This document shows, in pieces, positions 1,902 to 53,371 of a DNA stretch of 64,000 bases. Within the stretch, counting starts at the first letter, position 1. Every line of letters begins with the position of its first letter. The DNA lies in the NCBI GenBank assembly GCA_965224195.1, contig OZ245040.1, positions 1,536,001 to 1,600,000 of the forward strand, given 5' to 3'. This DNA is from Nitrosopumilus sp. Its GTDB lineage: Archaea; Thermoproteota; Nitrososphaeria; Nitrososphaerales; Nitrosopumilaceae. The position numbers were made by a program, and so were the translations under genes. The notes beneath the pieces were generated by a model. The model was given only the letters and a program-made list of their open reading frames with translations, was not told the origin of the DNA and did not search any database.

Positions 1902-2366
1902 ATGAAAACTAAGAATTCCAAAAGACTAGATTCAATCAAAGCAGCTCATGAATTAGAAAGAACTCGTTCAAGTTCAAGAATGGAAGATTATTTGGAAATT
2001 ATTGGAGAATTAGTAGAGTTGAAAGGATATGCAACCACTTTGGATATTTCAAGATACATGAATGTCAGTGCACCAAGTGTAACTAAAATGCTTCAAAGAC
2101 TAGAGGAAAATGGGTTTTTAGAATATGAAAAATATCATGGAATCAATCTTACAGATAAAGGAATGCAAGTTGCAGAAGGAATAAGACAGAAACATGGAAT
2201 ATTATTAGAATTTTTTGAAATTTTAGGAGTAGGATATGAAACAGCCAACCAAGATGCAGAAGGAATAGAACATCACTTAAATCCAAAAACAATAAAACAA
2301 TTAAGAAAATTTATTACTTTTCTGAAAGCAAATCCAAAAATTATTGATAATTTTAAAAATCTTTAA
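1902..2366 (+). CDS. mntR: DtxR/MntR family metal-dependent transcriptional regulator
   Basis: MEDYLE, VSAPSVTKMLQRL HTH, DAEGIEHHL. Confidence 0.9.
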   Translation: MKTKNSKRLDSIKAAHELERTRSSSRMEDYLEIIGELVELKGYATTLDISRYMNVSAPSVTKMLQRLEENGFLEYEKYHGINLTDKGMQVAEGIRQKHGILLEFFEILGVGYETANQDAEGIEHHLNPKTIKQLRKFITFLKANPKIIDNFKNL

Positions 2367-4173
2367 GATATAATTTGATATCATTTTGTGAAGATGAAAA
2401 ATCCATCAAGGTTCGTGCCACATCAGAACGTTTTGGAATTTTAAGTTGTCCTTTTTTTCCAATTCTAACAGATGCAACGAATTTTTCATTGGCATAGATA
2501 TCAGTATGCATTGATGTAAAATCCCTATTCACAGTAAGAAGAATTGCAGTTTTTGATTCAGAGAAACTAAATGGTAAATCATTAGATGTTAGTGATATAT
2601 CATCAGGTGATTTTTCAACAACGTCAATATGGACTTTGAGTAATTTTTCAATTTCATTAATGTTTGAGCCTCCACGTCCAATAATGGATGCAATATTTCG
2701 CTCATTGACCATAACTTTAACTCGATTATCAGATAAAATTTCAACTTCTGCATGTGGATCATATTGTCTGAAAGTTTCTTTAATTTTATCCTCAGCAAGT
2801 TTTTCTATTCCAATTTTATCGACTTTTTTCCCTACTGGAACTATAACATTTTCTTCACCAAAAGTGTAAATCTCATGTTCTAGAACATCATTCTCAAAAT
2901 TTCTAATTTCAATTACGGGTCTAGCCAAATCAGATTCAGTCATCCCAGTTGGAACTTTTACTTTTAATTCTAAATCATATACCATTTGAATTTCACCGTC
3001 TTTTACAAAAACTACAGTATCCAAAACATTTGGAATAATTCCTAATTCAATTTTACCAATGAATCGCTGAATTGCATCTAATGGAGAATTTGCATGTACA
3101 ACGCCAACCATTCCAACTCCAGTTAATCTCAAATCAGCAAAAGTAGCAAAATCTTCCCTTCGTCTTACTTCATCAAAAATTGTATAATCAGGTCTAACTA
3201 ATAATAAAATATCAGCAGAATTATCAAAACTTCCATCAAGTTTACTGTATTGAGTTACTCCCGAATCAACTTGTAAATCTCGTGGAGATTCAAATGTTTT
3301 TACAATCTTTCCCTGTTTATGATAAAAATTTGCAAGTCCTGATGCAAGTGTACTTTTTCCAGAACCAGGAGCACCTGAAATAACAATACCTTCTGCACTA
3401 CCAGAGAATCGTTCCATTAATTTTTCAGAAATAGAATAATCTTCAAGAGATAATTTTACAATTGGATGAACTATGGTAATTTCAAAAGATTCTGAAAAAG
3501 GAGGATGTGTAATTGCAATTCTATAATCTTGATGTTGAACAACAGATGCGCCTGTTTTAGATATTTCCAGAGCAGTAGAATCAGATATGTTCACGACATC
3601 CAAAATTTGTGCTGAAATCATTTCTAAATAATCCTTAGATAGAAGATCATCATTTAACTTTGTCAACACAAAGGCTCCAGGTTTTCCTTTTTTTGCCAAA
3701 GGGCATTGATTTTCTTTTAGATGAACACTCATTGTTTCAGAATCAAAATATTTTAAAAATTCTAAAGATTCATTTTTAATTTCAGATTTTAAAAATACTG
3801 TTTCAACACCTTCTCCCTGCGCCACCAAATGTTGAACATGATCAGAGGTGTACAGTATTGCATTGTTTTGTTTAGCCATATCTACTATTAGAGAATCAAT
3901 TCTCCCACTACTAGCAAGATTCACATCATCTGAAGAAGGATGTGTTCCATCCACAACAATACTTAGCCCATAACTTCCAGACAATAATTTCAGCTTTCGA
4001 ATCTTCTCAAGACCAATAAATCCCTGTTCTTTTTTCTTCGATGCCTGTGATTGCAACTCATCAAATACAGCTTGAGGAATAATGATTTCAAAATTTCTAA
4101 CACTCCCAGATTCAATTTGGGATACAAGTTGGCCATTGATAATTACGCTAGTATCAGCTACAATTTTTGACAA
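2353..4173 (-). CDS. PIN-domain ATPase with KH domain (PINA / PINc-VapC family ATPase)
   Basis: N-terminal PIN (ADTSVII), Walker A GAPGSGKS, FDEVR, KH GRGG motif. Confidence 0.9.
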   Translation of the reverse strand: MSKIVADTSVIINGQLVSQIESGSVRNFEIIIPQAVFDELQSQASKKKEQGFIGLEKIRKLKLLSGSYGLSIVVDGTHPSSDDVNLASSGRIDSLIVDMAKQNNAILYTSDHVQHLVAQGEGVETVFLKSEIKNESLEFLKYFDSETMSVHLKENQCPLAKKGKPGAFVLTKLNDDLLSKDYLEMISAQILDVVNISDSTALEISKTGASVVQHQDYRIAITHPPFSESFEITIVHPIVKLSLEDYSISEKLMERFSGSAEGIVISGAPGSGKSTLASGLANFYHKQGKIVKTFESPRDLQVDSGVTQYSKLDGSFDNSADILLLVRPDYTIFDEVRRREDFATFADLRLTGVGMVGVVHANSPLDAIQRFIGKIELGIIPNVLDTVVFVKDGEIQMVYDLELKVKVPTGMTESDLARPVIEIRNFENDVLEHEIYTFGEENVIVPVGKKVDKIGIEKLAEDKIKETFRQYDPHAEVEILSDNRVKVMVNERNIASIIGRGGSNINEIEKLLKVHIDVVEKSPDDISLTSNDLPFSFSESKTAILLTVNRDFTSMHTDIYANEKFVASVRIGKKGQLKIPKRSDVARTLMDFSSSQNDIKLYLKDF

Positions 4174-4722: not shown

Positions 4723-5940
4723 TCATCTGCTGGCATTGTGGGCACGAACTACTGACTGCAAGTATTGCACTGCCTTTGCCTACTCTATCTTCATCGCATC
4801 TATTACCACTGGGTCTGACAGCTTGTCTGATGATGGCACTATCCAGATGGTTACTGGCTCTTTCAGGTCATTAAATGACTCATCAAAGAGCCCAGAGTTT
4901 GAATAATATTCCTTTACGTATTGCAGTGCACGATCCTTCTCATAGGATATGATACCATCATAGTTTGAGTTTGTCCTGCTCATTACATTTTTGATGTCAT
5001 CCTGGTATCGTACAAACTCGTCTCTTTCCAGCTAGAGCCACGTGCCAAAGTCGTTATGTGTCCATGCATATCCCCACTGGTCAGCAGTCAAAAATGTCAG
5101 AGCTTGAGCAGCAACAGCAGGTCGTTATGTGTCCATGCATATCCCCACGGGTCAGCCCACAGGTTGCCGGCTCTGTCTGTCTGGGTCAGTACCAGCTGGT
5201 GGATGCTTGCATATTCCTCTGAGTGATACATGCCGCTGCTTACAATGTGTCTCACATCAGCAGGGTTTAGTGACTCCCCAATTACGACAAAGCCGTGATT
5301 AAAATAATTCATGTGGATTCGTCTGTCAGTATCGACTGCTCCAATAGCAAATACCTTGTGTATTGGCGTCTCGTTGAAGTCAAACTGCAGCGTTACAGTG
5401 TGGCATTTTGGCGTTGTGTCTGTGCGCAGGCATTTGCTTGGCTCTATGGTTGCAGCAGTTACCGTACCATCCAGTAACCCTTCTGCATCAAGCACATCAA
5501 TTCTGACTACATAGTTATTGGGACTGGTATAGTTTCTAGACAGGTGTACCTTTACGCTTGTCTCTACATTATATACATCTCCAAGTCTTGGCACTCCAAA
5601 GAAAAACTCCACATAAGATAATATCTTGTCTGTGCATACCTTGCCTTGCAGATAGTTTGTGGTGTCTACCAGGATTTTGTCCTCAGGATACTCAGTGTGC
5701 CAGTCCGTCACGTCAACGCAGTTTTCATTCAGGCACATGCCGTTATTTACAATTAAATCATGTGTCAACTGAGACTTGCCAAAGGTTGGCTTTTTGTAAT
5801 CCTGCTGTATGATTGCAACATCATTGTTTGCAGCTGTGGTTGTTGCATCAACTGTTCCAATAGTTGTTGAAAATAATATTGATGCTGATACCAGTAGTAG
5901 AATTGTTATGTGATACTGCGTGTACCCCCTCCCCCTTCAT
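4723..5940 (-). pseudogene. Secreted/surface protein of a thaumarchaeal family, disrupted
   Basis: Signal peptide (YHITILLLVSASILFSTTIGTVDA) is out of frame with ATG 5940. ORFs 5097-5768 and 4780-4983 join once the 71-bp insertion is removed. Further in-frame stops at 5032 and 4780. Confidence 0.8.
5050..5156. repeat. 36-bp direct repeat (5050-5085, 5121-5156; 1 mismatch) flanking a 35-bp unique insert
   Basis: gtcgttatgtgtccatgcatatccccac(t/g)ggtcagc x2; insert agtcaaaaatgtcagagcttgagcagcaacagcag. Confidence 0.95.
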
Positions 5941-6206
5941 TGTTTGCTTTAAGCTCATTTACAATTATAGGATTTATATAATATTTAATACATCTTTCAT
6001 TCACAACCAGCCAGCGATCTCCTGACGTATGGTTTTGATTTCATATATTCATACTGCAATTATTCAACCGACTGGAATATTGAGGAGCCAAGTTTCAAGA
6101 AATATTCTCAAAATTTACAGCAAAAAGAATTTTGGAAAAAAGATTCTCAAATATGCAATAAAATTAGTCTATTCATCCGGCAAGATGAATCTGTAAAAGA
6201 TATCAG

Positions 6207-6545
6207 TTGACTCATCATGATGGGTCAATCAAAGAAATCACATCAGTTTATGCAGACAAGGAATACGACAGCACAGCAATCAGAAATTATTTGAAAAATA
6301 GAAACATTACCCCATGCATTCCAAAAAGAAATTTCAAGAAAAACAGTACTGAAAAATATAGTTACAAAAATTACAACAAGGTGAGATTTGTTGTGGAGAG
6401 ATTTTTTGCATGGTTCTGGTCCACTATGGTTGAACAATGGTTTTCATAGAACTAGAATCAGACATGAAAGAATTACAGATAATTATTTGTCATTTGCTTA
6501 TTTGGCATCAATTATGATGTATTGGAGGGTTTTAGGATAAGTTGA
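6207..6545 (+). mobile_element. IS5-family transposase C-terminal remnant with right end
   Basis: VYADKEYDS, RFVVERFFAW, then after a 16-bp insertion NGFHRTRIRHE...YWRVLG* (stop 6540). Confidence 0.8.
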
Positions 6546-6562
6546 ATAGATGAGTTGCGCAA

Positions 6563-6654
6563 TTGATTCAAAATGCAAGTAAAATTTAGTCTCAGATCTC
6601 GATACTTAACACGAAGAAGATCCATAGTTGAGGTCTTGATTACTTAACAGAACC
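6563..6654 (+). mobile_element. IS6-family right-end remnant
   Basis: LIQNASKI* (6563-6589) matches the C-termini of the other transposases here; terminal repeat at 6641-6654 reads GGTTCTGTTAAGTA on the minus strand. Confidence 0.75.
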
Positions 6655-6795
6655 TAATAATAACATCATAATCATCATATAGATTGAATTTTTCTTATAG
6701 ACCTGGCCATATGCTATTGTATCCTTTTCTGGCTCGGGTTTAGATTTTGGTTCTGGTTTAGTTTTCCAAAATCTCTTAAAATGATTTAACATCAT
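6640..6795 (-). pseudogene. Membrane protein 5' fragment truncated by the IS6 end
   Basis: MMLNHFKRFW...MMIMMLLL, then GSVK* encoded by the IS terminal repeat. Confidence 0.55.
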
Positions 6796-6931
6796 GAGGT
6801 TTTTTAAAGAAATATACTAAAAGAAAGTATTTTAACTAAAAAGATTAACGTTAACGTGTTTTAGAATTTTCTTTCCTTTTCATTTGATTGTATTTTCTTC
6901 ATTACATCGTCATAGTTAATTTTCCATCAGG

Positions 6932-7039
6932 TAAGAAGTGTGTAAATATTTTTCCTATGTTTCCATCTTGAGAATTTTGTTAAATGTAATGTCTATGCTC
7001 TTTTAAGAAGTGTGTAAATATTTTTCCTATGTTTCCATC
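6932..7039. repeat. 36-bp perfect direct repeat (6932-6967, 7004-7039) flanking a 36-bp unique insert
   Basis: taagaagtgtgtaaatatttttcctatgtttccatc x2; insert ttgagaattttgttaaatgtaatgtctatgctcttt. Confidence 0.95.
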
Positions 7040-7390
7040 AGGTAAGATTTTAAAAGTTATGATAACTGTTTGATTGCCATTAGTTGAAGTGAATCCTATC
7101 TTCCGGTCTGTAAGATAAGATGTGTCTCCTAATGATTGGACGTTTTTATATTTGGATGTAAAATTCATGTACTCTGGAGTTTGTTTGACTTTGTTTTCAA
7201 TACTGGTAAAAGGTTCCCATACAAGATCTCCGTAGATATTTCCAGATGAAAATAAATTCCAAATTAAACTGTATTGTGTAGCTCCCAAAATGACGAAAAT
7301 GGAGAGAAAAATAATTAAAATAATACCTGTCAATGGATTATTTTTAAAAAAAGAAAAAAAGTTAGAAATGAGCATGCCACCATTGAACAT
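6980..7390 (-). CDS. Small membrane-anchored protein, C-terminus altered by a 72-bp insertion; likely start 7375
   Basis: One TM helix; the current stop lies inside the 36-bp insert, and without it the ORF ends ...THFLPDGKLTMTM* at 6902. Confidence 0.7.
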   Translation of the reverse strand: MFNGGMLISNFFSFFKNNPLTGIILIIFLSIFVILGATQYSLIWNLFSSGNIYGDLVWEPFTSIENKVKQTPEYMNFTSKYKNVQSLGDTSYLTDRKIGFTSTNGNQTVIITFKILPDGNIGKIFTHFLKEHRHYI

Positions 7391-8693
7391 AGCTAGGCCA
7401 CCACAATCCAGGCCAAATATAACTTAGAACCTCAGGATTTGGTTCTTGACCATAGACGATATAGTCATAGCTTGATCTATCAATAATTGCCTGATCTCTG
7501 AACTGACCACTATTACAATTTCCTGGAGCGCCACTACTGACAACTTTGGCATAATCATATGGTCTAGAGGCTTCACCACTAAATGTTGCATATGAAGAAA
7601 CTTGATGATATCTATCACGCAGTAAATCATGCTGAGCTTGATAGAGGCTGCTGAATCCAGATTCGGAATCAATAACGCCTATATCTGGATGAGGATTAGA
7701 CATTCCATAACTTCCACAAGCACTAGGGCTTGAATTTGTACTGTGTCTTACTTTGGTGATTTCTGTATCAGACTCAACTCCAAATGCTGATTTTATAGGG
7801 GTTGAGACTTGATCATACATTACAAATACAATTTGCGTGTCATCTGTCAAATGTTCAGTATGAACTATACTCTCCACAGGATCAAACATTTTATGGAATT
7901 GTCCTGATTCCAATGATTCTATTGCATCATCAGATTGTTTCTCATCAACATCAGTTTGATCATAAAATGCATCGGCCATCTTATTGTGTATATCTGCAAA
8001 GTCTACAATTATCTGAATTTCAGAATTTGTCAATCCTTCAGATCTTAGAGTCTTTTTGTCTACAATCATGTGCATTGCATCATCAAAGGATACAAAATTC
8101 TCTGCATGTTCAAAAGCATGTCCAATTTCATCTATGGGATAACCAGTTACAATAGCATCCTCGTTCTCTTGGGCATACTGTCTGTCCAATCTGTCATTTA
8201 GCTTTGCAAGTCTATTCTCGGCCTTGGCAAGCTTTTCACTCAATACCTCAACTTTGTTGGAATTTTCTTTTGATTCCTGTGCAATCTTTACAGCTAACTT
8301 GGAAATTCGCTTCTCAACCTGATTGATTAGATGCTTAGTTGTTTCTATTTGCCCTTTTTTGGCATCTAGTTTATCCTGAATTTTGGCATGTTTTGCTTCT
8401 AACTTGACTAGTTTCTGCTCTACATTACCAATCTTTTCTTCAATGTCTTGAATGTGTTTTTGGTTTCCTTGTTCCTGTGCTTTGAGAAGTTTTTCTGCAA
8501 AGTCTGCCTTTTTGCTTTCAATGTTGGCAATCTCGTCTGCAATCTTTTGGAGTTTGATCTCAAGTTTGTCGATCTTTTTTTGTTTTTTATAGTCTGAGGT
8601 TGCAGCATCTGCCATATTCATAGATGAAAATGGTAGAATCATTGCAACAATCAACGAAGCAAACAAAAACGTTTTCGTTCTTCTATTTGTCAT
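7362..8693 (-). CDS. Secreted protein with long coiled coil and Trp-rich C-terminal domain
   Basis: Signal peptide KTFLFASLIVAMILPFSSMNMADA, about 140 aa of heptad coiled coil, C-terminus QEPNPEVLSYIWPGLWWPSYVQWWHAHF. Confidence 0.8.
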   Translation of the reverse strand: MTNRRTKTFLFASLIVAMILPFSSMNMADAATSDYKKQKKIDKLEIKLQKIADEIANIESKKADFAEKLLKAQEQGNQKHIQDIEEKIGNVEQKLVKLEAKHAKIQDKLDAKKGQIETTKHLINQVEKRISKLAVKIAQESKENSNKVEVLSEKLAKAENRLAKLNDRLDRQYAQENEDAIVTGYPIDEIGHAFEHAENFVSFDDAMHMIVDKKTLRSEGLTNSEIQIIVDFADIHNKMADAFYDQTDVDEKQSDDAIESLESGQFHKMFDPVESIVHTEHLTDDTQIVFVMYDQVSTPIKSAFGVESDTEITKVRHSTNSSPSACGSYGMSNPHPDIGVIDSESGFSSLYQAQHDLLRDRYHQVSSYATFSGEASRPYDYAKVVSSGAPGNCNSGQFRDQAIIDRSSYDYIVYGQEPNPEVLSYIWPGLWWPSYVQWWHAHF

Positions 8694-8839
8694 TAAATTA
8701 GAATAAAATTATTTAGATTTAAAGATGATGATCAACTCATATAAAATATCATTAATCATATACCAAAATACTAAACAACAATACTAGGAACTCAAGTAAC
8801 AGATCAACGCTTTTATCTCAGATCATCACTGAATTTACC

Positions 8840-8981
8840 ATGTCAAATAGTACAAAAAGTGCCAAATGTCCTCAGTGTCAGTTGACTGTCCGGGGAGAGT
8901 ATCTATGATATTTGGATATCGTGTAAACCAGAGGAAAAAGAAATCCAGTCCTGGTGTAAGGGATGCCGCTCTACTTCTTAA
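8840..8981 (+). pseudogene. Small Zn-finger protein remnant (frameshifted)
   Basis: AKCPQC...IFGYR...IQSWCKGCR spread over three frames. Confidence 0.55.
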
Positions 8982-9079
8982 CTGTCATACTCTATTAATG
9001 GCAGGGCTTTATCCTATTGATATTTCTCCATATGTTAGAATAATGCCATTAATTCCATTTTATATGTGGTATAATCACA

Positions 9080-9973
9080 GGTTCTGCTAACTTATCGAGG
9101 GATAAACTAGACTGAATTTTCCTTGTATAAACTGGCGTTTTCAATAATAGTTTTCCATCTATTCTTACCATCAACTTCAATCATGGCTTGTTCTGCTGGT
9201 GTCTTGCCTTTCAAAGAACCGTGTTTCTTTGTGAAATTGTAATAGGCCTTCATTCCGTCAATCAAAGGAGTATCAAATTTCTTTAATCCTCGGAATACTT
9301 TCTCTCTGTCTCTTATTTCTCCATTCAATCTCTCCATCTTGTTATTGCTGCCTCTGCCTCTTCTGCCTGCAATGTGAATATGTCCGACATGGTTGGTTTT
9401 CTTTCCAAAGACTTTCTTGCTTGACTTCATATATGCTGGCAGTCCATCAGTTACAAAGTGTGCAGGGGATTTTCCAATCTTCTTTTTTGTCAATTCCAAT
9501 AATGTGCCTGCATTATGCTGGAATTTTGTCTCTGACGTGTCACTAGCCAACCAGTAACGAGTATCATCATCCATAGAGGCAAAGAGATAGTTTTGTTTTC
9601 CTGCGATTTTAATCCAAACCTCATCTGCTCTGACCATAGCCCTGTCATTGGTTCTTGGTACAATGTCATTTAGATATTTTGAAACCATTGTGGAATATTT
9701 ACAAATCCATTTGTAAACTGCAACATCAGATACCTCAATACCCATCATCTCATAATGGTTTGAAATATCCCTTGTGGACATCCACGAATAATACATTTGT
9801 AATGCATCTGTAATTGTATTGGGGCTATCTTGTTTTCTCAAATCCAAAGTTTAAGCTAAATTTCTTCTTGCAGTCTAGACATTCAAAGATTCTAACTTTA
9901 CCGTTTTTGTTCTTTCTAAATCCATCTTTTCTTAATCTGCCTGAATCACAGTATTTGCATAGTTCTAATTTTG
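9080..9973 (-). mobile_element. IS6-family (DDE, IS240-like) element; frameshifted transposase with N-terminal Zn ribbon, 5' end cut by the next IS
   Basis: ORF 9107-9847 has RADEVW, VTDGLPAY, NNKMERLNG; CKYC...CLDC lies in another frame at 9850-9970; terminal repeat GGTTCTGCTAACTT at 9080-9093. Confidence 0.9.
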
Positions 9974-10455
9974 GGTTCTGTTGCGTTAGTGGGTGTTAAG
10001 TAAAAATCTTATTCGTGTTGCGTGTCGGGTGTTTTTGAGGCGTTTTGAATTATGGTCAACCATTTGTTGTTTCCTTTAATGTCAATGCCTGCCCTCAAAG
10101 CTGGCGTATTACTATACAAGCTCATGTGAGGTCTAATGTAATTGTGATATAGCTTGATTCCTGTTAAAGCTGGACTGTCGTCTTTTTTCAAACCACGAAA
10201 TACTTTCTCACGATCCCGAAACTCACCGTTCAATCTTTCCTGTATGTTGTTGTTGGCTAATTGATTCTTAAAGTGAACATCTTTGACGTGCTTGCTTGGC
10301 TTGTGTAGGAAATTCTTTGGTGCAAACTCCTTTTTGAATGCGTCATTATACGCTGGCAATCCATCAGTTACAAATGTAGAGGGAACTTTCTTTGCAACTT
10401 TCTTACCCATCTTTAGAAGACTTTGAGCGTCATGCTTGAACTTACTATCTACCAC
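9974..10455 (-). mobile_element. IS6-family element, 5'-truncated transposase (10009-10455)
   Basis: VTDGLPAY, NNNIQERLNG, WLTIIQNASK; terminal repeat GGTTCTGTTGCGTT at 9974-9987, resembling the IS257 end. Confidence 0.9.
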
Positions 10456-10641
10456 TTCCTGAATTGAAACATGGTGATGAATTTGAGAAAAGAGTCAAGC
10501 ATCTAAAACATGATATGCAAGAAAAATACTTTGATCGTGCTGAATTTGTTAAAATGGGGCAACAAAAAATGAATGAATCCCTATTTCGTGATTTTATTAA
10601 ATTCACAAACAAGATAAACACCAAATAATCACGCTTCTACT

Positions 10642-11090
10642 ATGATACATGATTTTATTTTTAACATGACTCATCTACTTGATATATTTGCATTAGCTGC
10701 AAACATAACACTCATAGTTACAGTCTACATATTATTCTCTCAATCCAGAAAGAAAAACAAAATTGCATCCATCCAATTATGTCGAGATTTGTTAAATCTC
10801 ACAGGTAAAGGTAATAAACTAAAAGAGACAAACAATTTCATAGTAAATAATGATTAGACAATTGCAAAAAAATTGATATTGAAAACTTTCTAAACGAATA
10901 TGATGATATTGCATTTTATTGGTCTGATGGTATTGTACATATAAAACACATAAAAGAAATGCATGGAGCTATTCTCTCAAAAATCAAAACTGATAAACTA
11001 ATCCAAAATATCATAAAAGAAAAAAGAAAAGAAGATGAGTTTTATTTCTCCAATTTGGTAAAATTATTGAAAAAGATTAAAACTATCTAG
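10642..11090 (+). pseudogene. DUF4760-like membrane-anchored protein, split
   Basis: N-terminal TM ORF 10642-10857 continues in another frame as IENFLNEYDDIAFYWSDGIV...FSNLVKLL*. Confidence 0.55.
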
Positions 11091-11094
11091 TACC

Positions 11095-11232
11095 TGTTCT
11101 GCCACCTGTGAGATATTTCTCAAACATGACGGTAAGTTTTGCCCCTGTTGCAAAACTCAGCTAAGAACAAAACCAAAATCTAAATTGGGTAAACAAAAAT
11201 GGACTGAAAGACACGGACTGCCATTCCTCTAA
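11095..11232 (+). pseudogene. 5'-truncated small Cys-rich Zn-finger protein, paralogue of 45869-46066
   Basis: TCEIFLKHDGKFCPCCKTQLRTKPKSK vs CSLCALFFFTEENTCPCCKTRLRTKARSK. Confidence 0.65.
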
Positions 11233-11357
11233 TGTAAGAACCGTAATTGGAAAGAACGGATTGCCTTTATGTACTAGTAAAATGTTAAGGAAGGATGAGA
11301 AATAATGTACCCAACGCTGAAATAATGCTTTAATATGGTAATTATGATTTAAAACAT

Positions 11358-11507
11358 ATGGATTCATTACAGAGTTTTGTACATAATGTAGTAAGAGATG
11401 ATAATTCAGATACAAAAGGACTTCAAGATCTTATGAAGATATTAAATGATCTTGATAGTGAAGAGAAACCATTATACATTCGTCGTAAAGTGACATCTAA
11501 CAGATGA
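11358..11507 (+). CDS. Small acidic protein (49 aa) translationally coupled to the protease
   Basis: MDSLQSFVHNVVRDDNSDTKGLQDLMKILNDLDSEEKPLYIRRKVTSNR*; ATGA overlap with 11504. Confidence 0.6.
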   Translation: MDSLQSFVHNVVRDDNSDTKGLQDLMKILNDLDSEEKPLYIRRKVTSNR

Positions 11508-12400
11508 AGGATATTATAACTGACGGAATTTTTACTAATATTTTAAATCAAAACAATCATGATTATAGACAAAAGCTGATAAAACTAATCGAGGATAATC
11601 TTGGTGGCAGGATCATATGTTATATTGAAAACCCAGAACATCCATTTGCATTTATCAATATGGATGATGCAATTGCATTTGAGGATATGTTGCGTTCTAC
11701 TGGAAAATCTAAAAAAGGATTTTTAATCTTAAATTCTTCTGGCGGTGATGGAAATGCGGCTGAAAAACTACTGTCTATGTGTAGAGAAAGATTTACAGAT
11801 GGTTTTACGATAATTGTTCCAAACTTTGCAAAAAGTGCTGCAACTATGATGTGTCTTGGAGCTGATAAGATTATGATGGGTTATCTTGCAGAGCTTGGCC
11901 CTATTGATCCACAGATCTCTATTCCTAACGGAGTTCCCATACCTGCCCGTTCGTTCATTGATGGTTTGGAAATGGTTAGACAAAATGTGAAAGAGGGTGA
12001 TCCTCCCACCATGTATTTGTCTATGTTACAAAAAGTACGACCTGAGTTGATTTCTCTTTGTAATTCTGCAATTGAAGATGCAAAATGTTTTGCGACTGAT
12101 TGGCTTACCAAGTACATGTTAAAAGATAATCCGGCACACGCCAAAAAAGTTTCTGAATGGCTGTCTGATGGTAAAACATACAAATCTCATGGTAAAATGA
12201 TTAACTATAATGAATCTAAAAATATTTTAAAATTGAATGTTGATTTAATTGATTGTAATTCTGAGCTTTGGTATTGGATTTGGGAATTGTATGTGAGTTC
12301 TATTGTTTATATTCAAAGACAGGGTCCTCACATTGCCAAGCTTTTTGAGAGTTCGACGGTTTCTTTAACTTCATCTGTTGTTCTACCCACACCTAAATAG
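11504..12400 (+). CDS. SDH-family ClpP-fold serine protease
   Basis: LNSSGG, AKSAATMMCLGAD, LGPIDPQ and SHG motifs. Confidence 0.88.
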   Translation: MKDIITDGIFTNILNQNNHDYRQKLIKLIEDNLGGRIICYIENPEHPFAFINMDDAIAFEDMLRSTGKSKKGFLILNSSGGDGNAAEKLLSMCRERFTDGFTIIVPNFAKSAATMMCLGADKIMMGYLAELGPIDPQISIPNGVPIPARSFIDGLEMVRQNVKEGDPPTMYLSMLQKVRPELISLCNSAIEDAKCFATDWLTKYMLKDNPAHAKKVSEWLSDGKTYKSHGKMINYNESKNILKLNVDLIDCNSELWYWIWELYVSSIVYIQRQGPHIAKLFESSTVSLTSSVVLPTPK

Positions 12401-13566
12401 GGCATTGTAAAGTTGATGGGGCTTTAGATCCTAATTTTCTCTTGTCAACTTTCGAGACCTACATTGTTACTTTTCGGTTGCTGTGAAAACAATCTAAATT
12501 TGGAAATAAAATATGTATTTGCAATGATGGATGATGAAACCAGATTCTGGATTGCTCAAGAAGTTGGTGACAGAAAAGAAGGACATAACGCAGGAGGGTT
12601 ACTACAAAAGGCAAAACAAGTTACACAAACAAAACCTAAAGTGTTCATCACAGATGGTCTAGGATCATATCATGAAGCATACAAGAAAGAATTTTGGACA
12701 TTGAAAAGACGTAACAGAACATTACACATCAGACATATTCACTTGCAAGATGACATGAACAATAACAAGATGGAACGACTCAATGGAGAAATTAGAGATA
12801 GGGAAAAAGTAATGAGAGGAATAAAGAAAAAAGATTCAGTTACACTAACTGGTTATCAGTTGTTTCACAATTACATTCGACCACACAGTGCATTAGGTGG
12901 ATTGACACCTAGTGAAAAATGTGGTATGGAGATTCAAGGAGACAATAAATGGATTACATTAATTCAGAATGCTAGTAAGAAATGATTATTGATTATCTTG
13001 ACAATGAACAAAGAACAGGATTTTTCTATCTCTCATTGGATTAATTACAACTTCTACTCTTCCATCAATGATAAACAACATGTGTCCTGCACTTTTTTGA
13101 ACATGTGTACATTCAACAAATGCAGGATGTTTTTCAGGATGTTCAAATTCAACAATGTCTGTTTTGAATTTGGTTAGAAGATCTACGGAAGGATCAGAAA
13201 CATACTCAATATTTACAAAATATTGTGACCACGTAGGTGTTTTACATGTCCAAAAACGAGTCAATATGTAACAAAAACTACTGAGGGATTAAATATCTAC
13301 TTCTTGATCTTCCGTATGCGTCTCAAATTTCTTAGATGATTCTTGTGCTATTTTGAAATGACGTTCTTCCCAATGTCTTTTCTCGGATTTCATGTTATAA
13401 TGTAACATAATACATGTTATAAATTTTCGAAGTTTTACAACAATCACACACGATTATTAAGAAATTTACATAATCTTAATAATATTTGATATTTGGACGG
13501 TACCACTCAAATCTCCATCAACTGACTTTTTACGCCTATTTTATCAACCGCAGGCTTTACAGAACC
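12401..13566 (+). mobile_element. IS6-family element with passenger ORF(s); truncated transposase 12464-12985
   Basis: ITDGL, NNNKMERLNG, WITLIQNASKK; IS6-like ends GGCATTGTAAAGTT (12401-12414) and, on the minus strand, GGTTCTGTAAAGCC (13553-13566). Confidence 0.8.
12986..13264 (-). CDS. IS passenger hypothetical protein (size and pattern weakly RelE/ParE-like)
   Basis: 92 aa ORF whose stop abuts the transposase stop, inside the terminal repeats. Confidence 0.5.
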   Translation of the reverse strand: MTRFWTCKTPTWSQYFVNIEYVSDPSVDLLTKFKTDIVEFEHPEKHPAFVECTHVQKSAGHMLFIIDGRVEVVINPMRDRKILFFVHCQDNQ

Positions 13567-13642
13567 CAAAAATGACTAAAACTGATCCGTTTTTCGTATA
13601 AAATGGACCAAACGGTTATAACGTAATAATGTGAAAAGTACG

Positions 13643-13752
13643 GTATGCAACTTACTGTAACATATAACATTGAGAAAACTCTAAATATTCAGTTAGCCTA
13701 AATGCGTTAGACTAAGTATGCAACCTACTGTAACATATAACATTGAGAAAAC
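13643..13752. repeat. 37-bp direct repeat (13643-13679, 13716-13752; 1 mismatch) flanking a 36-bp unique insert
   Basis: gtatgcaac(t/c)tactgtaacatataacattgagaaaac x2; insert tctaaatattcagttagcctaaatgcgttagactaa. Confidence 0.95.
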
Positions 13753-13939
13753 CACTAGTGGTTTTATTGGACAATGTGTTCAGTTTCCACAAATATTCAC
13801 AGAAGCAAAAACTGAAACTGCACTAAAAAAAGAAATGGATGTTGTTTTAGATGGTTATTTCAAAGCATGTCCACAAGCACACAAAATGATTAAGAAAAAT
13901 GTAGGACATGGAACGTACGAAATCAAGAAAAACGCATAA
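13718..13939 (+). CDS. HicB-like antitoxin
   Basis: IEKTTSGFIGQCVQFPQIFTEAKTETALKKEM follows the HicB beta-beta-beta-alpha pattern. Confidence 0.7.
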   Translation: MQPTVTYNIEKTTSGFIGQCVQFPQIFTEAKTETALKKEMDVVLDGYFKACPQAHKMIKKNVGHGTYEIKKNA

Positions 13940-19336: not shown

Positions 19337-19498
19337 AACAAATTACCGTTAAAAATCCATAATATAAAAAATTCAGATTATTCCTAAAAATGAGCCAAAA
19401 TTGAACCCTGATAAGACATAATCATAAAAAGATAGATTATTTTTGCGAGAATATGTGATGACATGCATTAAAATATCATCTTTTTAGAACTCTATCAA

Positions 19499-19873
19499 TT
19501 GTCAAAAAAAGATTTTGAAACTATTTGTGATACAATTGCAACAATTAGTCCATTTATCAGATTTATAGGCGTAATTGGTGAAAGTGGGAATCTTTTAGCA
19601 TACAAACGAAGACCAGAATTGATTCCATTATTAAATGAAAAAAATACACAGTATCAATTTTCACATATTGCAATGAAGACAGATTTAGAGGGATTTTTTG
19701 ATAAAAATCTAGGAGAGATTGAATTTGTCTGGGAGGAAAGGAAGAAAGTACAAACAATCTCATTTGCAATTAAAAAATCAAGAGTTTGGATATCAATTGA
19801 TAAAAAAGTAATCAGATCAGAAGCATTAAGAATCATTGATTCATGTTTGCCGATTGTGAAAAAATATTCTTAA
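19499..19873 (+). CDS. Thaumarchaeal roadblock/profilin-like (DUF6659-like) protein
   Basis: IRFIGVIGESGNLL...LGEIEFV...ISIDK. Confidence 0.6.
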   Translation: MSKKDFETICDTIATISPFIRFIGVIGESGNLLAYKRRPELIPLLNEKNTQYQFSHIAMKTDLEGFFDKNLGEIEFVWEERKKVQTISFAIKKSRVWISIDKKVIRSEALRIIDSCLPIVKKYS

Positions 19874-19876
19874 CAC

Positions 19877-19972
19877 ATGAAATGCCCATATTGTGAAATT
19901 GACCTGGATTTACTTAGTATGACTGATGGATTAAAACACATACTAGAACATAAAAAAGAAATACAAAATTAA
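19877..19972 (+). CDS. Putative micro-protein with C2H2-like finger (31 aa)
   Basis: MKCPYCEIDLDLLSMTDGLKHILEHKKEIQN*, starting 3 nt after the previous stop. Confidence 0.45.
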   Translation: MKCPYCEIDLDLLSMTDGLKHILEHKKEIQN

Positions 19973-20075
19973 AATATTTGAATAATTTTTAAAAAACAGG
20001 GATGAATCAGATGAGGTTCAAAATTTAATCGACGAGATCAATTTTAGAAAATCAAATTCTAAAAACTATGAAAAA

Positions 20076-20291
20076 ATGAAATCTATTGAAATCAGTAAAG
20101 AATTAAAAGAAATCATGAAATTTAAACAAGAATCATTTAAGAAAATTGAAGAGTTTGAAAAAACTCAAAAAACCCAGGATTTAGTTCAATACGCTAAAAT
20201 GATTAGTAGAAATACAACTGGAAGAGAAATTTCCCAACTACAAGAAATATACTTGAAAAAAATTGATGATGAATTTCTTAAGAAAAAATAA
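20076..20291 (+). CDS. Hypothetical protein
   Basis: 71 aa charged helical ORF. Confidence 0.5.
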   Translation: MKSIEISKELKEIMKFKQESFKKIEEFEKTQKTQDLVQYAKMISRNTTGREISQLQEIYLKKIDDEFLKKK

Positions 20292-23666: not shown

Positions 23667-24422
23667 TTAATCATTTTTTACTTCAATTTTATTTTTATTG
23701 AATTTGTTGTAACCCTCTTTGTTGTAGCCCTCTTTGTTGTAGCCTAGGTGATCATATCCAAGTCTATCATACCCGTCTTTGTTGTGCCCATTGCTATCAT
23801 ACCCATCTAAATCATACCCGTCTTTGTTGTATCCATTTACATCATATCCATTACTATCATATCCATTTTTATCATATCCGTCTTTGTTAAACCCGTCTTT
23901 GTTAAACCCGTCTTTGTTGTATCCCTTTAGATCATACCCGTCTTTGTTAAACCCATTTTTGTTGTATCCATCTTTGTTGTATCCTTTTTTGTTGTACCCA
24001 TTTTTGTTGTATCCATCTTTGTTGTATCCTTTTTTGTTGTACCCGTCTTTATCAAAATTTATTTTTGTATCAATGTGAATCCCATCAAGAGAAAAACCAC
24101 GATTATCGTACCCGTCTTTGTTGTATCCCTTGTTGTTGTATCCATTTTTGTTGTATCCGTCTTTGTCGTAACCCTTGTAATTGTATCCATCTTCGTCGTA
24201 TCCATCTTTGTATCCCTTTTTGTCATATCCATTTTTGTTGTAACCCTTTTTGTCATATCCATTTTTGTTGTAACCCTTTTTGTCATATCTCTTGTTGTTG
24301 TATCCATCTTTATCAAATCCATTTTTGTTGTAACCCTTTTTGTCATATCCATCTTTATCATACCCATCCAAGTCATACCCAAACTTGTCAAATGTTTTAC
24401 TAAATTTATCAAACAAACCCAT
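23667..24422 (-). CDS. G-[YF]-[DN]-K-x pentapeptide-repeat protein
   Basis: About 45 GYDKD/GYNKN-type repeats (15-bp degenerate unit); N-terminus MGLFDKF. Confidence 0.85.
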   Translation of the reverse strand: MGLFDKFSKTFDKFGYDLDGYDKDGYDKKGYNKNGFDKDGYNNKRYDKKGYNKNGYDKKGYNKNGYDKKGYKDGYDEDGYNYKGYDKDGYNKNGYNNKGYNKDGYDNRGFSLDGIHIDTKINFDKDGYNKKGYNKDGYNKNGYNKKGYNKDGYNKNGFNKDGYDLKGYNKDGFNKDGFNKDGYDKNGYDSNGYDVNGYNKDGYDLDGYDSNGHNKDGYDRLGYDHLGYNKEGYNKEGYNKFNKNKIEVKND

Positions 24423-32500: not shown

Positions 32501-33529
32501 TCATTTTGTAATAATTATCTTCATTGCATTTTCACCAGTACGGGCATGATCAAATGCTTTTTGAGAATCAGAAATGGAGTAGGTATGTGTGATTAGTTGT
32601 TTAACATCGATTTGAGAAGATTCGATTAGATTCAATGCTTCTTTTGTATCTGAATCAGATGCAGCATAGCTAGTAACCAAAGTTATTTCTTTAGAGTAAA
32701 TTTTACTCATATCTAAATCCAATTTTGCCCCTTTTGATGGAACACCAAATATCATTACAGTGCCTCCTTTTCTAGTCATGTCAATAGCATCATCTAATGC
32801 TTTGAGGCTACTTGTAGCAACAATTGCTACATCTACACCTTGTCCATCAGTATTATCCAAAACTGTTTGTTTTCTATGTTCATCCATTGAAGAAATGGAA
32901 GCAGTAATGTTAAATTTTTTTGCAAAATCTAATCTAAAATCATTTACATCAAAGCAGAAAATTTTGGAGAATTTTTTTGCATGTGCTAACATGACATGCA
33001 TCATTCCAGTTGGACCAACTCCAAAGATTGCAGTAGAATCACCCTCCACATATGCAAATTTAGACCAGGCCCTAACACAACATGCTAAAGGTTCAATCAT
33101 TGCAGCTTCTTCATAACTAAGAGAGTCTGAAATTTTTAAAACTCCACCATGTGAAACGTTCCATGCAGGGACTACATATTCTTCAGATAATCCACATGGA
33201 GAAAGATTAGTTTCATAATATTTTTCACACATTGTTTCATTTCCATGATTACAGTAATGACAATTATAGCATGGAACATGGTGATGTGTAAAAACTCTAT
33301 CACCTTTTTGGAATTCAGTTACATCAGCACCAACATCTAGTATTATTCCAGATGGTTCATGACCTAATCGCATTGAAGGTTGTCCATATTGTCCAAAAAC
33401 TTTTTCTAAATCAGAACCACAAATTCCACAAGCATGCATCTGCACTAGGACATCACCAGAAGTTAACTGAAGCTTATCTACATCATCAACAGAAATTACA
33501 GATGGTTCTTTAACAGATGCACTTTTCAT
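32501..33529 (-). CDS. Zn-dependent alcohol dehydrogenase (MDR family)
   Basis: CGICGSD, GHE, CxxCxxC...C, GVGPTG. Confidence 0.92.
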   Translation of the reverse strand: MKSASVKEPSVISVDDVDKLQLTSGDVLVQMHACGICGSDLEKVFGQYGQPSMRLGHEPSGIILDVGADVTEFQKGDRVFTHHHVPCYNCHYCNHGNETMCEKYYETNLSPCGLSEEYVVPAWNVSHGGVLKISDSLSYEEAAMIEPLACCVRAWSKFAYVEGDSTAIFGVGPTGMMHVMLAHAKKFSKIFCFDVNDFRLDFAKKFNITASISSMDEHRKQTVLDNTDGQGVDVAIVATSSLKALDDAIDMTRKGGTVMIFGVPSKGAKLDLDMSKIYSKEITLVTSYAASDSDTKEALNLIESSQIDVKQLITHTYSISDSQKAFDHARTGENAMKIIITK

Positions 33530-49126: not shown

Positions 49127-50254
49127 TTATTTAATTTTTTTATTTAATTCTGTAATGAATTTTTTTATTTTTGGTTTTGGAACAACTGCTCCACATGCTT
49201 TATCATGTCCACCACCAGAACCACCAAGACTAGTTGCCAAAAGATTAACAATTTTACCCAAGTGAACCTTACAATCCTTTGAACCTCTAACAGATACAGC
49301 ATAGATACCATGATTAACTCGTTCTTTGTAAGCAACACCAACATTTTTCCCAGATAATCCCATAACAAAATTAACTGCACCACTTGCACCAGCATCTAAA
49401 ATTTCCATATGACCAAGATTACTCATTGTTTTTAGTCCTACCTTTACTTTGGCAATCATTTGAGATAGTTTTTCCACTTGAATTTGTGCAAATTCAAAGG
49501 TGTTTGGAATAGCATGTGGGAATTTAGAGTCTGCTAATTCTTCAACTAAATATTGTAAATAATCAGGTTCTCTTTGGCGTCCTACAATATTGTAAGTCAA
49601 AACAGTAGCACTGATTAATGCAAATTGTCGGTCATAGATTTGTAGTAATTTTGCACCAAGTGGCCTAGTTTCCATATAATCGGTGATTGCAGCACATGTT
49701 GCAATAAAAGATGCATGATCGTTGAGTTTTGATTTGAATGCAGTATAAGTTAGAACTGCAGTGCATTCATTGATATCATGAATTACTTTGACTTTGATTT
49801 TGTTTAATGCCTTTACAACATTAGGATCAATATCATGATGATCAATGTAAGTAACTGAAACTTTATTTTTTCTCAAAGTTGTCAATATATCGATAAACTC
49901 ATCTTGTGTTTTTTTGCTTAATCCTAAATCACAAATAAATAATGATTTTAATTTTTCATCTGAAACTACTTGGTTTAATGCCTCCATTTGTCCAGGATAA
50001 TCAACCAACATAGCATCACCGCCAAATGCTTGACGAATTAATGCTGCAGAGCTAATACCATCACAATCTTCTTTATGAGAAATACAAATTACTTTGGTAC
50101 GTTTTGATTTGGTTACTTTTTTAGCTGCTGTTTTTTTGGTTACTTTTTTAGCTGCTGTTTTTTTGGTTACTTTTTTAGCTGCTGTTTTTTTGGTTACTTT
50201 TTTAGCTGCTGTTTTTTTGGTTTTAGGAGATACCAATACAGATTCAAAAATCAC
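49127..50254 (-). CDS. DHH/DHHA1 phosphoesterase with Lys/Ala-rich N-terminal tail
   Basis: SHKEDCDG, DLG, IDHH, GGGH. Confidence 0.9.
   Translation of the reverse strand: MIFESVLVSPKTKKTAAKKVTKKTAAKKVTKKTAAKKVTKKTAAKKVTKSKRTKVICISHKEDCDGISSAALIRQAFGGDAMLVDYPGQMEALNQVVSDEKLKSLFICDLGLSKKTQDEFIDILTTLRKNKVSVTYIDHHDIDPNVVKALNKIKVKVIHDINECTAVLTYTAFKSKLNDHASFIATCAAITDYMETRPLGAKLLQIYDRQFALISATVLTYNIVGRQREPDYLQYLVEELADSKFPHAIPNTFEFAQIQVEKLSQMIAKVKVGLKTMSNLGHMEILDAGASGAVNFVMGLSGKNVGVAYKERVNHGIYAVSVRGSKDCKVHLGKIVNLLATSLGGSGGGHDKACGAVVPKPKIKKFITELNKKIK
50108..50222. repeat. 27-bp tandem repeat x4 (KKTAAKKVT)
   Basis: Identical in-frame units. Confidence 0.92.
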
Positions 50255-52669: not shown

Positions 52670-53371
52670 ATGATAAGTTTTGAATTAATTATGGCAGGTA
52701 TAGACAAGGCAGCAATAGTATTCTCAATTGCAATCGCACTAGTAGGTGTAGGAATTGCAGTTGCAGGAAGCGCTGCAGATAATGCTCCAACATACACTGC
52801 TCCAGCAGTTACAAAAGAAATGTCAGAACCAGAAACTCAAAATGAGTCATTTGGTGCAGGCATTGCTGAGAAAGTAAAATCTGGGGATAATATGATGGAG
52901 AAAGAAACTGTACTGGAAGAAGAACTCAACATGGTAGAAACTCATGAAGAAGAACTCAACATGGTAGAAACTCATGAAGAAGAACTCAACATGGTAGAAA
53001 CTCATGAAGAAGAACTCAACATAGTAGAAACTCATGAAGAAGAAACCATGATGGAAGAACCAGTAGGACCAACAACTCACACAGTTGATATTCCAACAGG
53101 TACTTCAGTTCCAGGATGTGAAGAAAGTAATGTATGCTACTCACCAGCAGATATCATAATCAATGCTGGAGATACAGTAGAATGGATTAACGTCGACACA
53201 GCAGCACACACAGTAACTGGTGGCAGTCCAGCTGATGGCCCATCTGGCGTATTTGATAGCAGTCTAGTCATGGTAGATGCAGTTTATGCATTTACATTTG
53301 ATGACGCAGGCAATTACGATTACTTCTGTATGGTTCATCCATGGATGGTCGGTAGTGTTACAGTGAACTAA
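52670..53371 (+). CDS. Membrane-anchored blue-copper (plastocyanin/cupredoxin) protein; likely start 52691
   Basis: N-terminal TM; HTVT and YFCMVHPWM type-1 Cu ligands. Confidence 0.92.
   Translation: MISFELIMAGIDKAAIVFSIAIALVGVGIAVAGSAADNAPTYTAPAVTKEMSEPETQNESFGAGIAEKVKSGDNMMEKETVLEEELNMVETHEEELNMVETHEEELNMVETHEEELNIVETHEEETMMEEPVGPTTHTVDIPTGTSVPGCEESNVCYSPADIIINAGDTVEWINVDTAAHTVTGGSPADGPSGVFDSSLVMVDAVYAFTFDDAGNYDYFCMVHPWMVGSVTVN
52916..53044 (+). repeat. 30-bp tandem repeat x4 (EEELNMVETH)
   Basis: Three identical units and one with a single change. Confidence 0.93.

Follow-up and report, generated by a model that had tools for sequence, protein, structure and literature searches.

In Escherichia coli, over-produced Cas1-Cas2 of a type I-E system is said to insert spacers outside its CRISPR arrays, the off-target events having reportedly been found by deep sequencing in the 2018 work of Nivala, Shipman and Church in Nat Microbiol. 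In that work each event reportedly left a spacer-sized insert flanked by a target duplication of repeat length, a 'neo-CRISPR' locus; the targets are said to have been somewhat like the native site, and the events to have been proposed as the seeding of new arrays. Yersinia pestis and Sulfolobus islandicus are reportedly the two species in which circumstantial natural cases were noted in the same work. Off-target integration is usually seen as a rare laboratory side reaction. Here, units of repeat-insert-repeat anatomy are described from a 64-kb stretch of the chromosome of Nitrosopumilus sp. (C1:1536001-1600000 of genome G000, hereafter the window) and from the chromosome as a whole. Judged from their sequence, these units are very probably the scars of natural off-target spacer integration by Cas1-Cas2.

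Several published accounts bear on such events. Natural off-target cases are described as 'circumstantial evidence ... in two other species' (10.1101/148544). Off-target sites used in vitro by Cas1-Cas2 of Pyrococcus furiosus share features with repeats (PMC6698737), and ectopic spacer acquisition within arrays is reported for Streptococcus thermophilus and S. mutans (PMC7999890, PMC8265633). Cas1-like integration of a casposon is described for the family 1 casposase of Ca. Nitrosopumilus koreensis (PMC8464041). In the literature searched, abundant natural scars of this kind were not reported, whether from ammonia-oxidising archaea or from any other organism; supplements may list cases. The genome considered here (2.06 Mb plus a 7.4-kb contig, 33.6% G+C) encodes archaeal AmoA, and the organism is thus itself an ammonia-oxidising archaeon.

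Repeat-insert-repeat units in the window

A repeat search of the whole 64-kb window returned three units of 36/35/36, 36/36/36 and 37/36/37 nt (copy, insert, copy), exactly the lengths and periods listed in a first-pass annotation of the same DNA, and the repeats of the three are mutually unrelated in sequence.

Unit 1, copy 1: 5050..5085, 36 nt, within a diverged fragment belonging to a multi-copy family of 1446-codon genes, minus-strand reading
Unit 1, insert: 5086..5120, 35 nt, brings a stop into the minus-strand frame
Unit 1, copy 2: 5121..5156, 36 nt, one mismatch against copy 1; period 71
Unit 2, copy 1: 6932..6967, 36 nt, close to the 3' end of a 147-codon minus-strand frame, function unassigned
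Unit 2, insert: 6968..7003, 36 nt, seven foreign codons and a stop in place of the last nine codons of the frame
Unit 2, copy 2: 7004..7039, 36 nt, identical to copy 1; period 72
Unit 3, copy 1: 13643..13679, 37 nt, holds the ATG, with the first 11 codons, of a small gene read on the plus strand
Unit 3, insert: 13680..13715, 36 nt, spacer-sized
Unit 3, copy 2: 13716..13752, 37 nt, one mismatch; current start of the 80-codon frame 13718-13939; period 73

The remaining four of the seven repeat families in the window are head-to-tail coding repeats, and no further spaced repeat of the unit type was found there. Removal of one copy and the insert had been said to rejoin the coding sequence at the first two units. 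At unit 2 it does: the collapse in silico restores the native stop nine codons past the repeat (sequence read by eye, together with open reading frame lengths). At unit 1 it does not, the collapsed frame having 277 codons versus 279 and no long frame being regained; the window copy is a diverged fragment, in which homology to the intact 1446-codon paralogues continues across the site. The family comprises three intact copies (C1:668035-672372, 1013661-1017998 and 1601855-1606192), one 615-codon copy and the window fragment at approximately 4780-5934. At unit 3, where displacement of the gene start from its promoter had been proposed, a TATA-like sequence, TTATAA, is located 24-29 nt upstream of copy 1 (read by eye), and the insertion has left the true gene start 73 bp farther from it.

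A genome-wide class of units and its length ruler

The chromosome was compared with itself at offsets of 31-160, requiring 28 or more matches in a 30-nt window and retaining stand-alone pairs. More than half of the isolated direct-repeat pairs (33 of 64) were located at offsets 70-76, with a peak at 72-73, while the other 123 offsets shared 31 pairs; the enrichment at 7 of the 130 scanned offsets has a binomial p of 4.5e-25. A looser 24-nt scan gave the same peak (33 of 67 pairs at 70-75). A period-69 cluster at C1:1219568 was considered as a possible array and rejected, being a coding tandem repeat.

The catalogue drawn up, after the removal of six low-complexity coding repeats, contains 40 units, each with its own distinct repeat sequence. 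In 32 of them, here called typical, the repeats are 34-39 nt and the inserts 33-40 nt long. Typical repeats measure 36 nt in 9 units, 37 in 10 and 38 in 7 (mean 36.9 nt), and typical inserts 35 nt in 9 units and 36 in 8 (mean 36.0 nt; 34-38 nt in 30 of the 32). The period is 73 in 11 units, 72 in 7, 74 in 6 and 71 in 4. Of the typical units, 22 have identical copies, 8 show a single mismatch between the copies and 2 show two mismatches. Repeat modes of 36-37 nt and a period mode of 73 constitute the sharp ruler that the first-pass annotation had anticipated from the window, and the ruler, like the anatomy of the units, is seen directly.

Scar density is about 1 per 55 kb (32-40 in a 2-Mb genome), and clustering along the chromosome is marginal (11 gaps below 10 kb versus 6.9 expected, p 0.054). 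The three units of the window form a local cluster inside the genome-wide set.

A class of long duplications, 42-57 nt around 21-35-nt inserts, was also observed, at C1:1326357-1326500, 778950, 798295, 923061, 1129510 and 1619794; the first of these has a 54-nt duplication around a 35-nt insert. The class may represent integrations with a slipped ruler, or a different process.

Resident CRISPR-Cas systems

Three large CRISPR arrays are present on the chromosome, each adjoined by its own cas1, cas2 and cas4.

Array A: 707.1-713.7 kb, 90-91 repeats of 36 nt; periods 72 (30), 73 (31) and 74 (12)
Array B: 942.0-946.5 kb, 69 repeats of 30 nt; periods 66-67
Array C: 1457.2-1466.8 kb, 132 repeats of 37 nt; periods 72 (38), 73 (40), 74 (20) and 71 (12)

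The array spacers (288) are mostly 35-38 nt long. System A is of type I-G, its Cas4g/Cas1g fusion scoring 714.7 bits against a model cut-off of 560, with Cas3g, Csb2 and Csb1 present. System C is of type I, nearest to I-B; its Cas7/Csh2 and Cas5b fall below subtype cut-offs, and it also carries Cas3, Cas1, Cas2 and Cas4. System B has a Cas1b above its cut-off. No Cas1-family match was detected in the genome beyond the three beside the arrays.

Since both repeat and period lengths agree, the scars match arrays A and C in size but not array B; a matching array with cas1, cas2 and cas4 elsewhere in the genome, sought on the strength of the window, is thus present twice over. In the 24-nt scan no second peak appeared at 66-67, the periods of array B; of all units, 912673 (30/36, period 66) alone fits that array, and 1228750 (30/39) nearly does.

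Empty sites in orthologues and paralogues

The repeats had been read as target-site duplications, and empty-site alleles were therefore sought and found in both orthologues and paralogues, where the sequence occurs as a single copy without insert, which shows that the repeats are such duplications. Unit 173581 cuts short a short-chain dehydrogenase gene (adh_short), a region matched in 57 of 61 genomes of the genus, G000 included. In the closest relatives, the query's two halves map to subject stretches that share precisely one repeat length (G069, 19740-20176 and 19348-19775; G015, 32629-33065 and 33030-33457). The gene of G069 is 95% identical, and G069 and G015 both hold one 36-nt copy and lack the insert; in alignment A2, the dehydrogenase gene of G000 differs by 73 extra bases, a 37-nt insert and a second 36-nt copy, and is otherwise unchanged. 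Unit 886994 is an in-frame insertion in a conserved thioredoxin/DsbA-like gene with empty orthologues, the halves overlapping by 37 nt in G015 and likewise in G017, G019, G012, G003 and others. The impression from the window that core genes are spared thus does not extend to the genome, in which a conserved dehydrogenase is truncated and a conserved thioredoxin/DsbA-like gene carries an insertion.

Single-copy, insert-free paralogues were identified for seven units (1973078, 1892823, 1692970, 1639458, 1718775, 1159163 and unit 1 of the window). For window unit 1 there are four such paralogues, e.g., C1:1602175-1602211, and in the paralogue of window unit 3 (C1:2050981-2051283; alignment A1) the repeat sequence is also present once. 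In a sister-species test of four units, orthologues were available for two, both of them empty.

For unit 2 of the window no orthologue was found in the genomes searched, the matches in 40 relatives being to a repeated 45-bp upstream element only, and for unit 1326527 none was found in 25 genomes (0/25); these two regions seem to be strain-specific. The element itself, of about 45 bp at window positions 6500-6550, is present in many copies in G000 and in several genomes of the genus (88-98% identity), at more than 10 places in, e.g., G009 and G014, and is probably the end of an insertion sequence (IS) or a miniature inverted-repeat transposable element (MITE).

Inserts compared with array spacers

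The inserts resemble spacers in base composition as well as in length: their G+C content is 41%, versus 40-42% for array spacers and 33.6% for the genome. No insert matched an array spacer beyond 13 nt (40 inserts against the arrays). For eight of the 40 inserts a match of 28-39 nt occurs elsewhere on the chromosome, in several cases within multi-copy genes; the insert of unit 690211 derives from one 1446-codon paralogue, and the known sources are at distances of tens to hundreds of kb. Among the 288 array spacers there is no self match outside the arrays, versus the 8 of 40 inserts (Fisher p 2.5e-8). It would follow that Cas1-Cas2 also captures host DNA, and that self spacers are lethal or lost in a functional array. 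Off-target inserts would not be made into CRISPR RNA, so that self-derived ones could persist; the excess of self-derived inserts is what autoimmunity would leave behind.

Insertion of a casposon, IS or MITE was considered and rejected: terminal inverted repeats of the inserts are at most 2 nt in all 40 units, 32 of the 40 inserts are unique, and the duplication is about 36 nt.

Target preference

The repeats of arrays A and C supplied, at their leader-distal end, a template fixed beforehand (G[CT]TTCAAT, in inward reading). When the ends of the 32 typical targets were compared with it, the score was 4.0 of 8 versus a null value of 3.23, and none of 2000 random sets reached it. The 64 pooled junctions, taken unoriented, departed strongly from the composition of the genome: 28 had A at position -3, 25 had C at -2 (p 3e-6), 40 had G or C at +1 (p 2e-6) and 29 had T at +2. 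Array C fits this pattern, its leader-repeat junction having ACA before and GT after the boundary. On these statistics the target preference appears real but loose. An unanchored motif search by a home-made expectation-maximisation procedure yielded a weak TTGCA[AG] at scattered positions, and was replaced by the end-anchored tests.

Effects on genes, and nested and paired units

After collapse in silico, 21 of the 40 units lie in an open frame of at least 120 codons. Unit periods leave remainders of 0, 1 and 2 modulo three in 14, 15 and 11 cases, respectively; with multiples of three not enriched, there has been no selective filtering for in-frame events. Frameshifting units split their genes, from 414 codons into 327 and 120 (unit 739057) and from 324 into 287 and 88 (unit 1363425). 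In-frame units lengthen the frame by 24-26 codons, as at unit 1326527, where 1035 codons have become 1060. Pfam matches were obtained for 7 of the 20 target frames searched: adh_short, Thioredoxin_4/DSBA, MCM, Beta_propel with Copper-bind, fn3, SHOCT (below its cut-off) and DDE_Tnp_1. The targets include cellular genes as well as mobile ones. The scars thereby act as insertion mutations of 70-76 bp that truncate, frameshift or lengthen host genes. As immunity they would be inert, because each has a unique pseudo-repeat and no leader.

One locus, C1:1090832-1091014, is nested, and consists of an outer copy (37 nt), a segment S1 (38), a segment S2 (35), S1 again (38) and the second outer copy (37). 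Its sequence suggests two integrations as the simplest history. A first off-target event would have set S1 between duplicated outer copies, after which S1 itself would have been taken as the "repeat" and duplicated around S2, one unit out of register.

One MCM-like gene (C1:912527-912768) contains two independent units, 36/40 and 30/36, at a distance of 146 bp; the second has the dimensions of array B.

Occurrence in relatives

Cas1-family matches were found in 31 of 78 genomes of the genus, G000 included. About a dozen of these look like strong CRISPR-type matches, while the weaker ones (~1e-28) look casposase-like. Four relatives (G055, G087, G007 and G002) were sampled over 400 kb each. G055, which has only an I-G-like system (36-nt repeat, periods 72-74), carries one 37/35 unit, and G087, which has only a C-like system (36-nt repeat, periods 70-72), carries two 35/34 units; the ruler thus follows the resident system in these relatives, and both system types seem able to make units. 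In G002 there was neither a Cas1 match nor a unit in the 400 kb, which contained three pure tandem duplications only. Since units occur in G055, G087 and G007, the phenomenon is not private to G000, which is unusually loaded with them (2-8 typical units per 400 kb).

Origin of the units

In the proposed mechanism, Cas1-Cas2 (with Cas4), carrying a prespacer of 34-38 nt, would attack ordinary chromosomal DNA instead of the leader-repeat junction. Two strand transfers one repeat length apart (~36-37 bp), followed by gap repair that duplicates the stretch between the attacks, would leave a target copy, a spacer and a second target copy. The enzymes responsible are most likely those of the type I-G module (Cas4g/Cas1g fusion and Cas2, 36-nt repeat) and of the I-B-like module (Cas1, Cas2 and Cas4, 37-nt repeat); relatives with only one of the two system types also bear units. 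The central proposal of the first-pass annotation, ectopic integration of spacer-sized DNA by a Cas1-type integrase, is supported by the ruler, the resident modules, the empty sites and the inserts.

A number of observations weigh against this interpretation. Eight of the 40 units are atypical, with repeats of 30-32 or 42-57 nt and inserts of 21-39 nt, and may have another origin. The likeness of the targets to the canonical repeat is weak and statistical, and the motif is missing from many of them. For the three inserts of the window, the virus matches and protospacer-adjacent motif that had been hoped for did not materialise: no source was found in the genome (matches of at least 22 nt for unit 1), among array spacers or in 50,697 phage records, and their central 24-mers had no exact match in IMG/VR contigs, a search that near matches with mismatches would escape. 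The eight self protospacers, compared with the units unoriented, have no common flanking triplet by eye. In the genome-wide scan, no locus had grown in register to a three-repeat array. In G007 no Cas1 was found, yet its 400-kb sample holds one clean 38/34 unit. Finally, Cas1-Cas2 catalysis, the acting module and the reason why self inserts survive only outside arrays are inferred from sequence.

The G007 sample also contains, at C1:883264-883362 (locus L132), two copies of GTTTCAATCTTTATTGTAATAGAAATCT 71 bp apart, which resemble the reverse complement of the C-type repeat of G087. The pair looks like an orphan array remnant, and loss of a CRISPR system is a possible explanation of the G007 unit. 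With an orphan CRISPR-like repeat pair and one unit, G007 was unfit as a CRISPR-free control.

An integrase unrelated to CRISPR could in principle insert 35-nt DNA with a 36-bp target duplication, and the indirect link between scars and Cas1-Cas2, together with the G007 unit, would accord with it. Such an enzyme is nevertheless highly improbable. The lengths of duplication and insert coincide with those of the G000 arrays and shift with the array period in G087, the G+C content of the inserts equals that of array spacers, and the only Cas1-family genes are the three beside the arrays; even the G007 sample includes the CRISPR-like repeat pair. The "unknown short-DNA integrase" entertained in the first-pass annotation is thus not needed.

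Replication slippage, template switching or break repair with filler DNA might be invoked for the eight atypical units, and pure tandem duplications do occur in G002. These processes would have no 36 + 36-nt ruler, yet the period peak is sharp. Nor are the inserts copies of adjacent DNA: no exact match between an insert and its flanks (1 kb on each side) exceeds 10 nt, a length that random 36-mers reach as well, and the known sources are distant. As a general origin of the units, this class of processes is no more probable than an unrelated integrase.

The anatomy of every unit is also that of a mini CRISPR array with two repeats and one spacer, either decayed or acquired horizontally. However, each "repeat" is different, consists of host coding sequence and is single in insert-free orthologues and paralogues, and the collapsed units commonly fall inside long frames (the 21 of 40 mentioned above). 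Every unit has two copies of a unique host sequence, never three in register, as a canonical array would have. This origin is more doubtful still than the preceding two.

Four public sequencing runs contain the stretch, and Logan contigs of two of them, X1 and X2, cross unit 1 without a gap and stop within the perfect 36-nt repeat of unit 2, as expected of a 31-mer graph. No joint skipping any unit was found among the contigs of the four runs, a check uninformative on polymorphism, as contigs lose rare variants; coverage of the unit sites by run X3 was not judgeable. Because X1 and X2 belong to one study, which is possibly the assembly's own source, contig spanning speaks only against assembly artefact. 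That the units are such artefacts is least probable of all: short-read graphs do break in the perfect repeats of unit 2, but the X1 and X2 contigs span unit 1, a two-contig genome holds 40 units of unrelated sequence, and like units are present in three other assemblies (G055, G087 and G007).

Surroundings of the units and other features of the window

The 10 kb around the three window units form an island with many insertion sequences and gene fragments. In a profile search of the window, DDE_Tnp_IS240 fragments were detected at 9107-9847, 10009-10455 and 12464-12985. Elsewhere in the window, long in-frame tandem repeats were observed at 23700-24400 (15-nt units over ~700 bp), 50108-50222 (a perfect 27-nt unit, 4.3 copies) and 52916-53044 (a 30-nt unit, 4.3 copies), and many repeat tracts of 153/156 bp and 60/120 bp are present genome-wide. 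A 606-aa protein with PIN, P-loop ATPase (T2SSE-like) and KH domains is encoded at 2353-4173 on the minus strand.

Significance

With some reserve, we are inclined to regard CRISPR adaptation as a quantitatively important endogenous insertional mutagen in this lineage of ammonia-oxidisers, the scars as a selection-free record of capture and integration, and the nested locus as the first step of array birth, out of register. If the interpretation is correct, the scars record what Cas1-Cas2 captures, about one fifth of it host DNA, and where integration is possible, and at least 32-40 of them have been fixed in a 2-Mb genome, with conserved cellular genes among those struck. Dozens of dated, sequence-resolved events in one wild genome would render several questions directly testable. 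These include what an active adaptation module really costs in mutations (here the truncation of one conserved dehydrogenase gene), which targets the little-studied archaeal type I-G and I-B-like integrases intrinsically prefer, the ratio of self to non-self capture before autoimmunity purges self spacers, and the birth of arrays from such seeds. Isolated direct repeats of the length of the resident CRISPR repeat are suggested as a signature for genome scans.

Comparison with known systems

The mechanism itself is already known from experiments in E. coli, and the units described here are like those off-target integrations in insert size, in the repeat-length duplication and in some likeness of the targets. 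Unlike that work, the present record comes from a single wild archaeon carrying type I-G and I-B-like modules, in whose genome 32-40 scars are fixed, and includes orthologous empty sites, nested re-integration and a measurable self-derived share.

As with P. furiosus Cas1-Cas2, the targets bear a weak resemblance to repeats, here to the ends of those of arrays A and C; the P. furiosus system was a plasmid assay with purified proteins and a 30-nt repeat, whereas the present record is chromosomal and was formed in vivo. The streptococcal events share integration away from the leader-proximal repeat, but there a true CRISPR repeat was duplicated inside an existing array, while here ordinary host DNA was duplicated. 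With casposase the units have in common a Cas1-family integrase, as proposed here, staggered cuts, target-site duplication and a related lineage. Casposons, in contrast, are several kb long and carry terminal inverted repeats and their own genes, and their target duplications are much shorter, whereas the inserts found here are of 34-38 nt and lack inverted repeats. New elements are the host lineage, the I-G and I-B-like subtypes, how many events have become fixed, the empty sites of orthologues, the nested event and the difference in self-derived content between inserts and array spacers.

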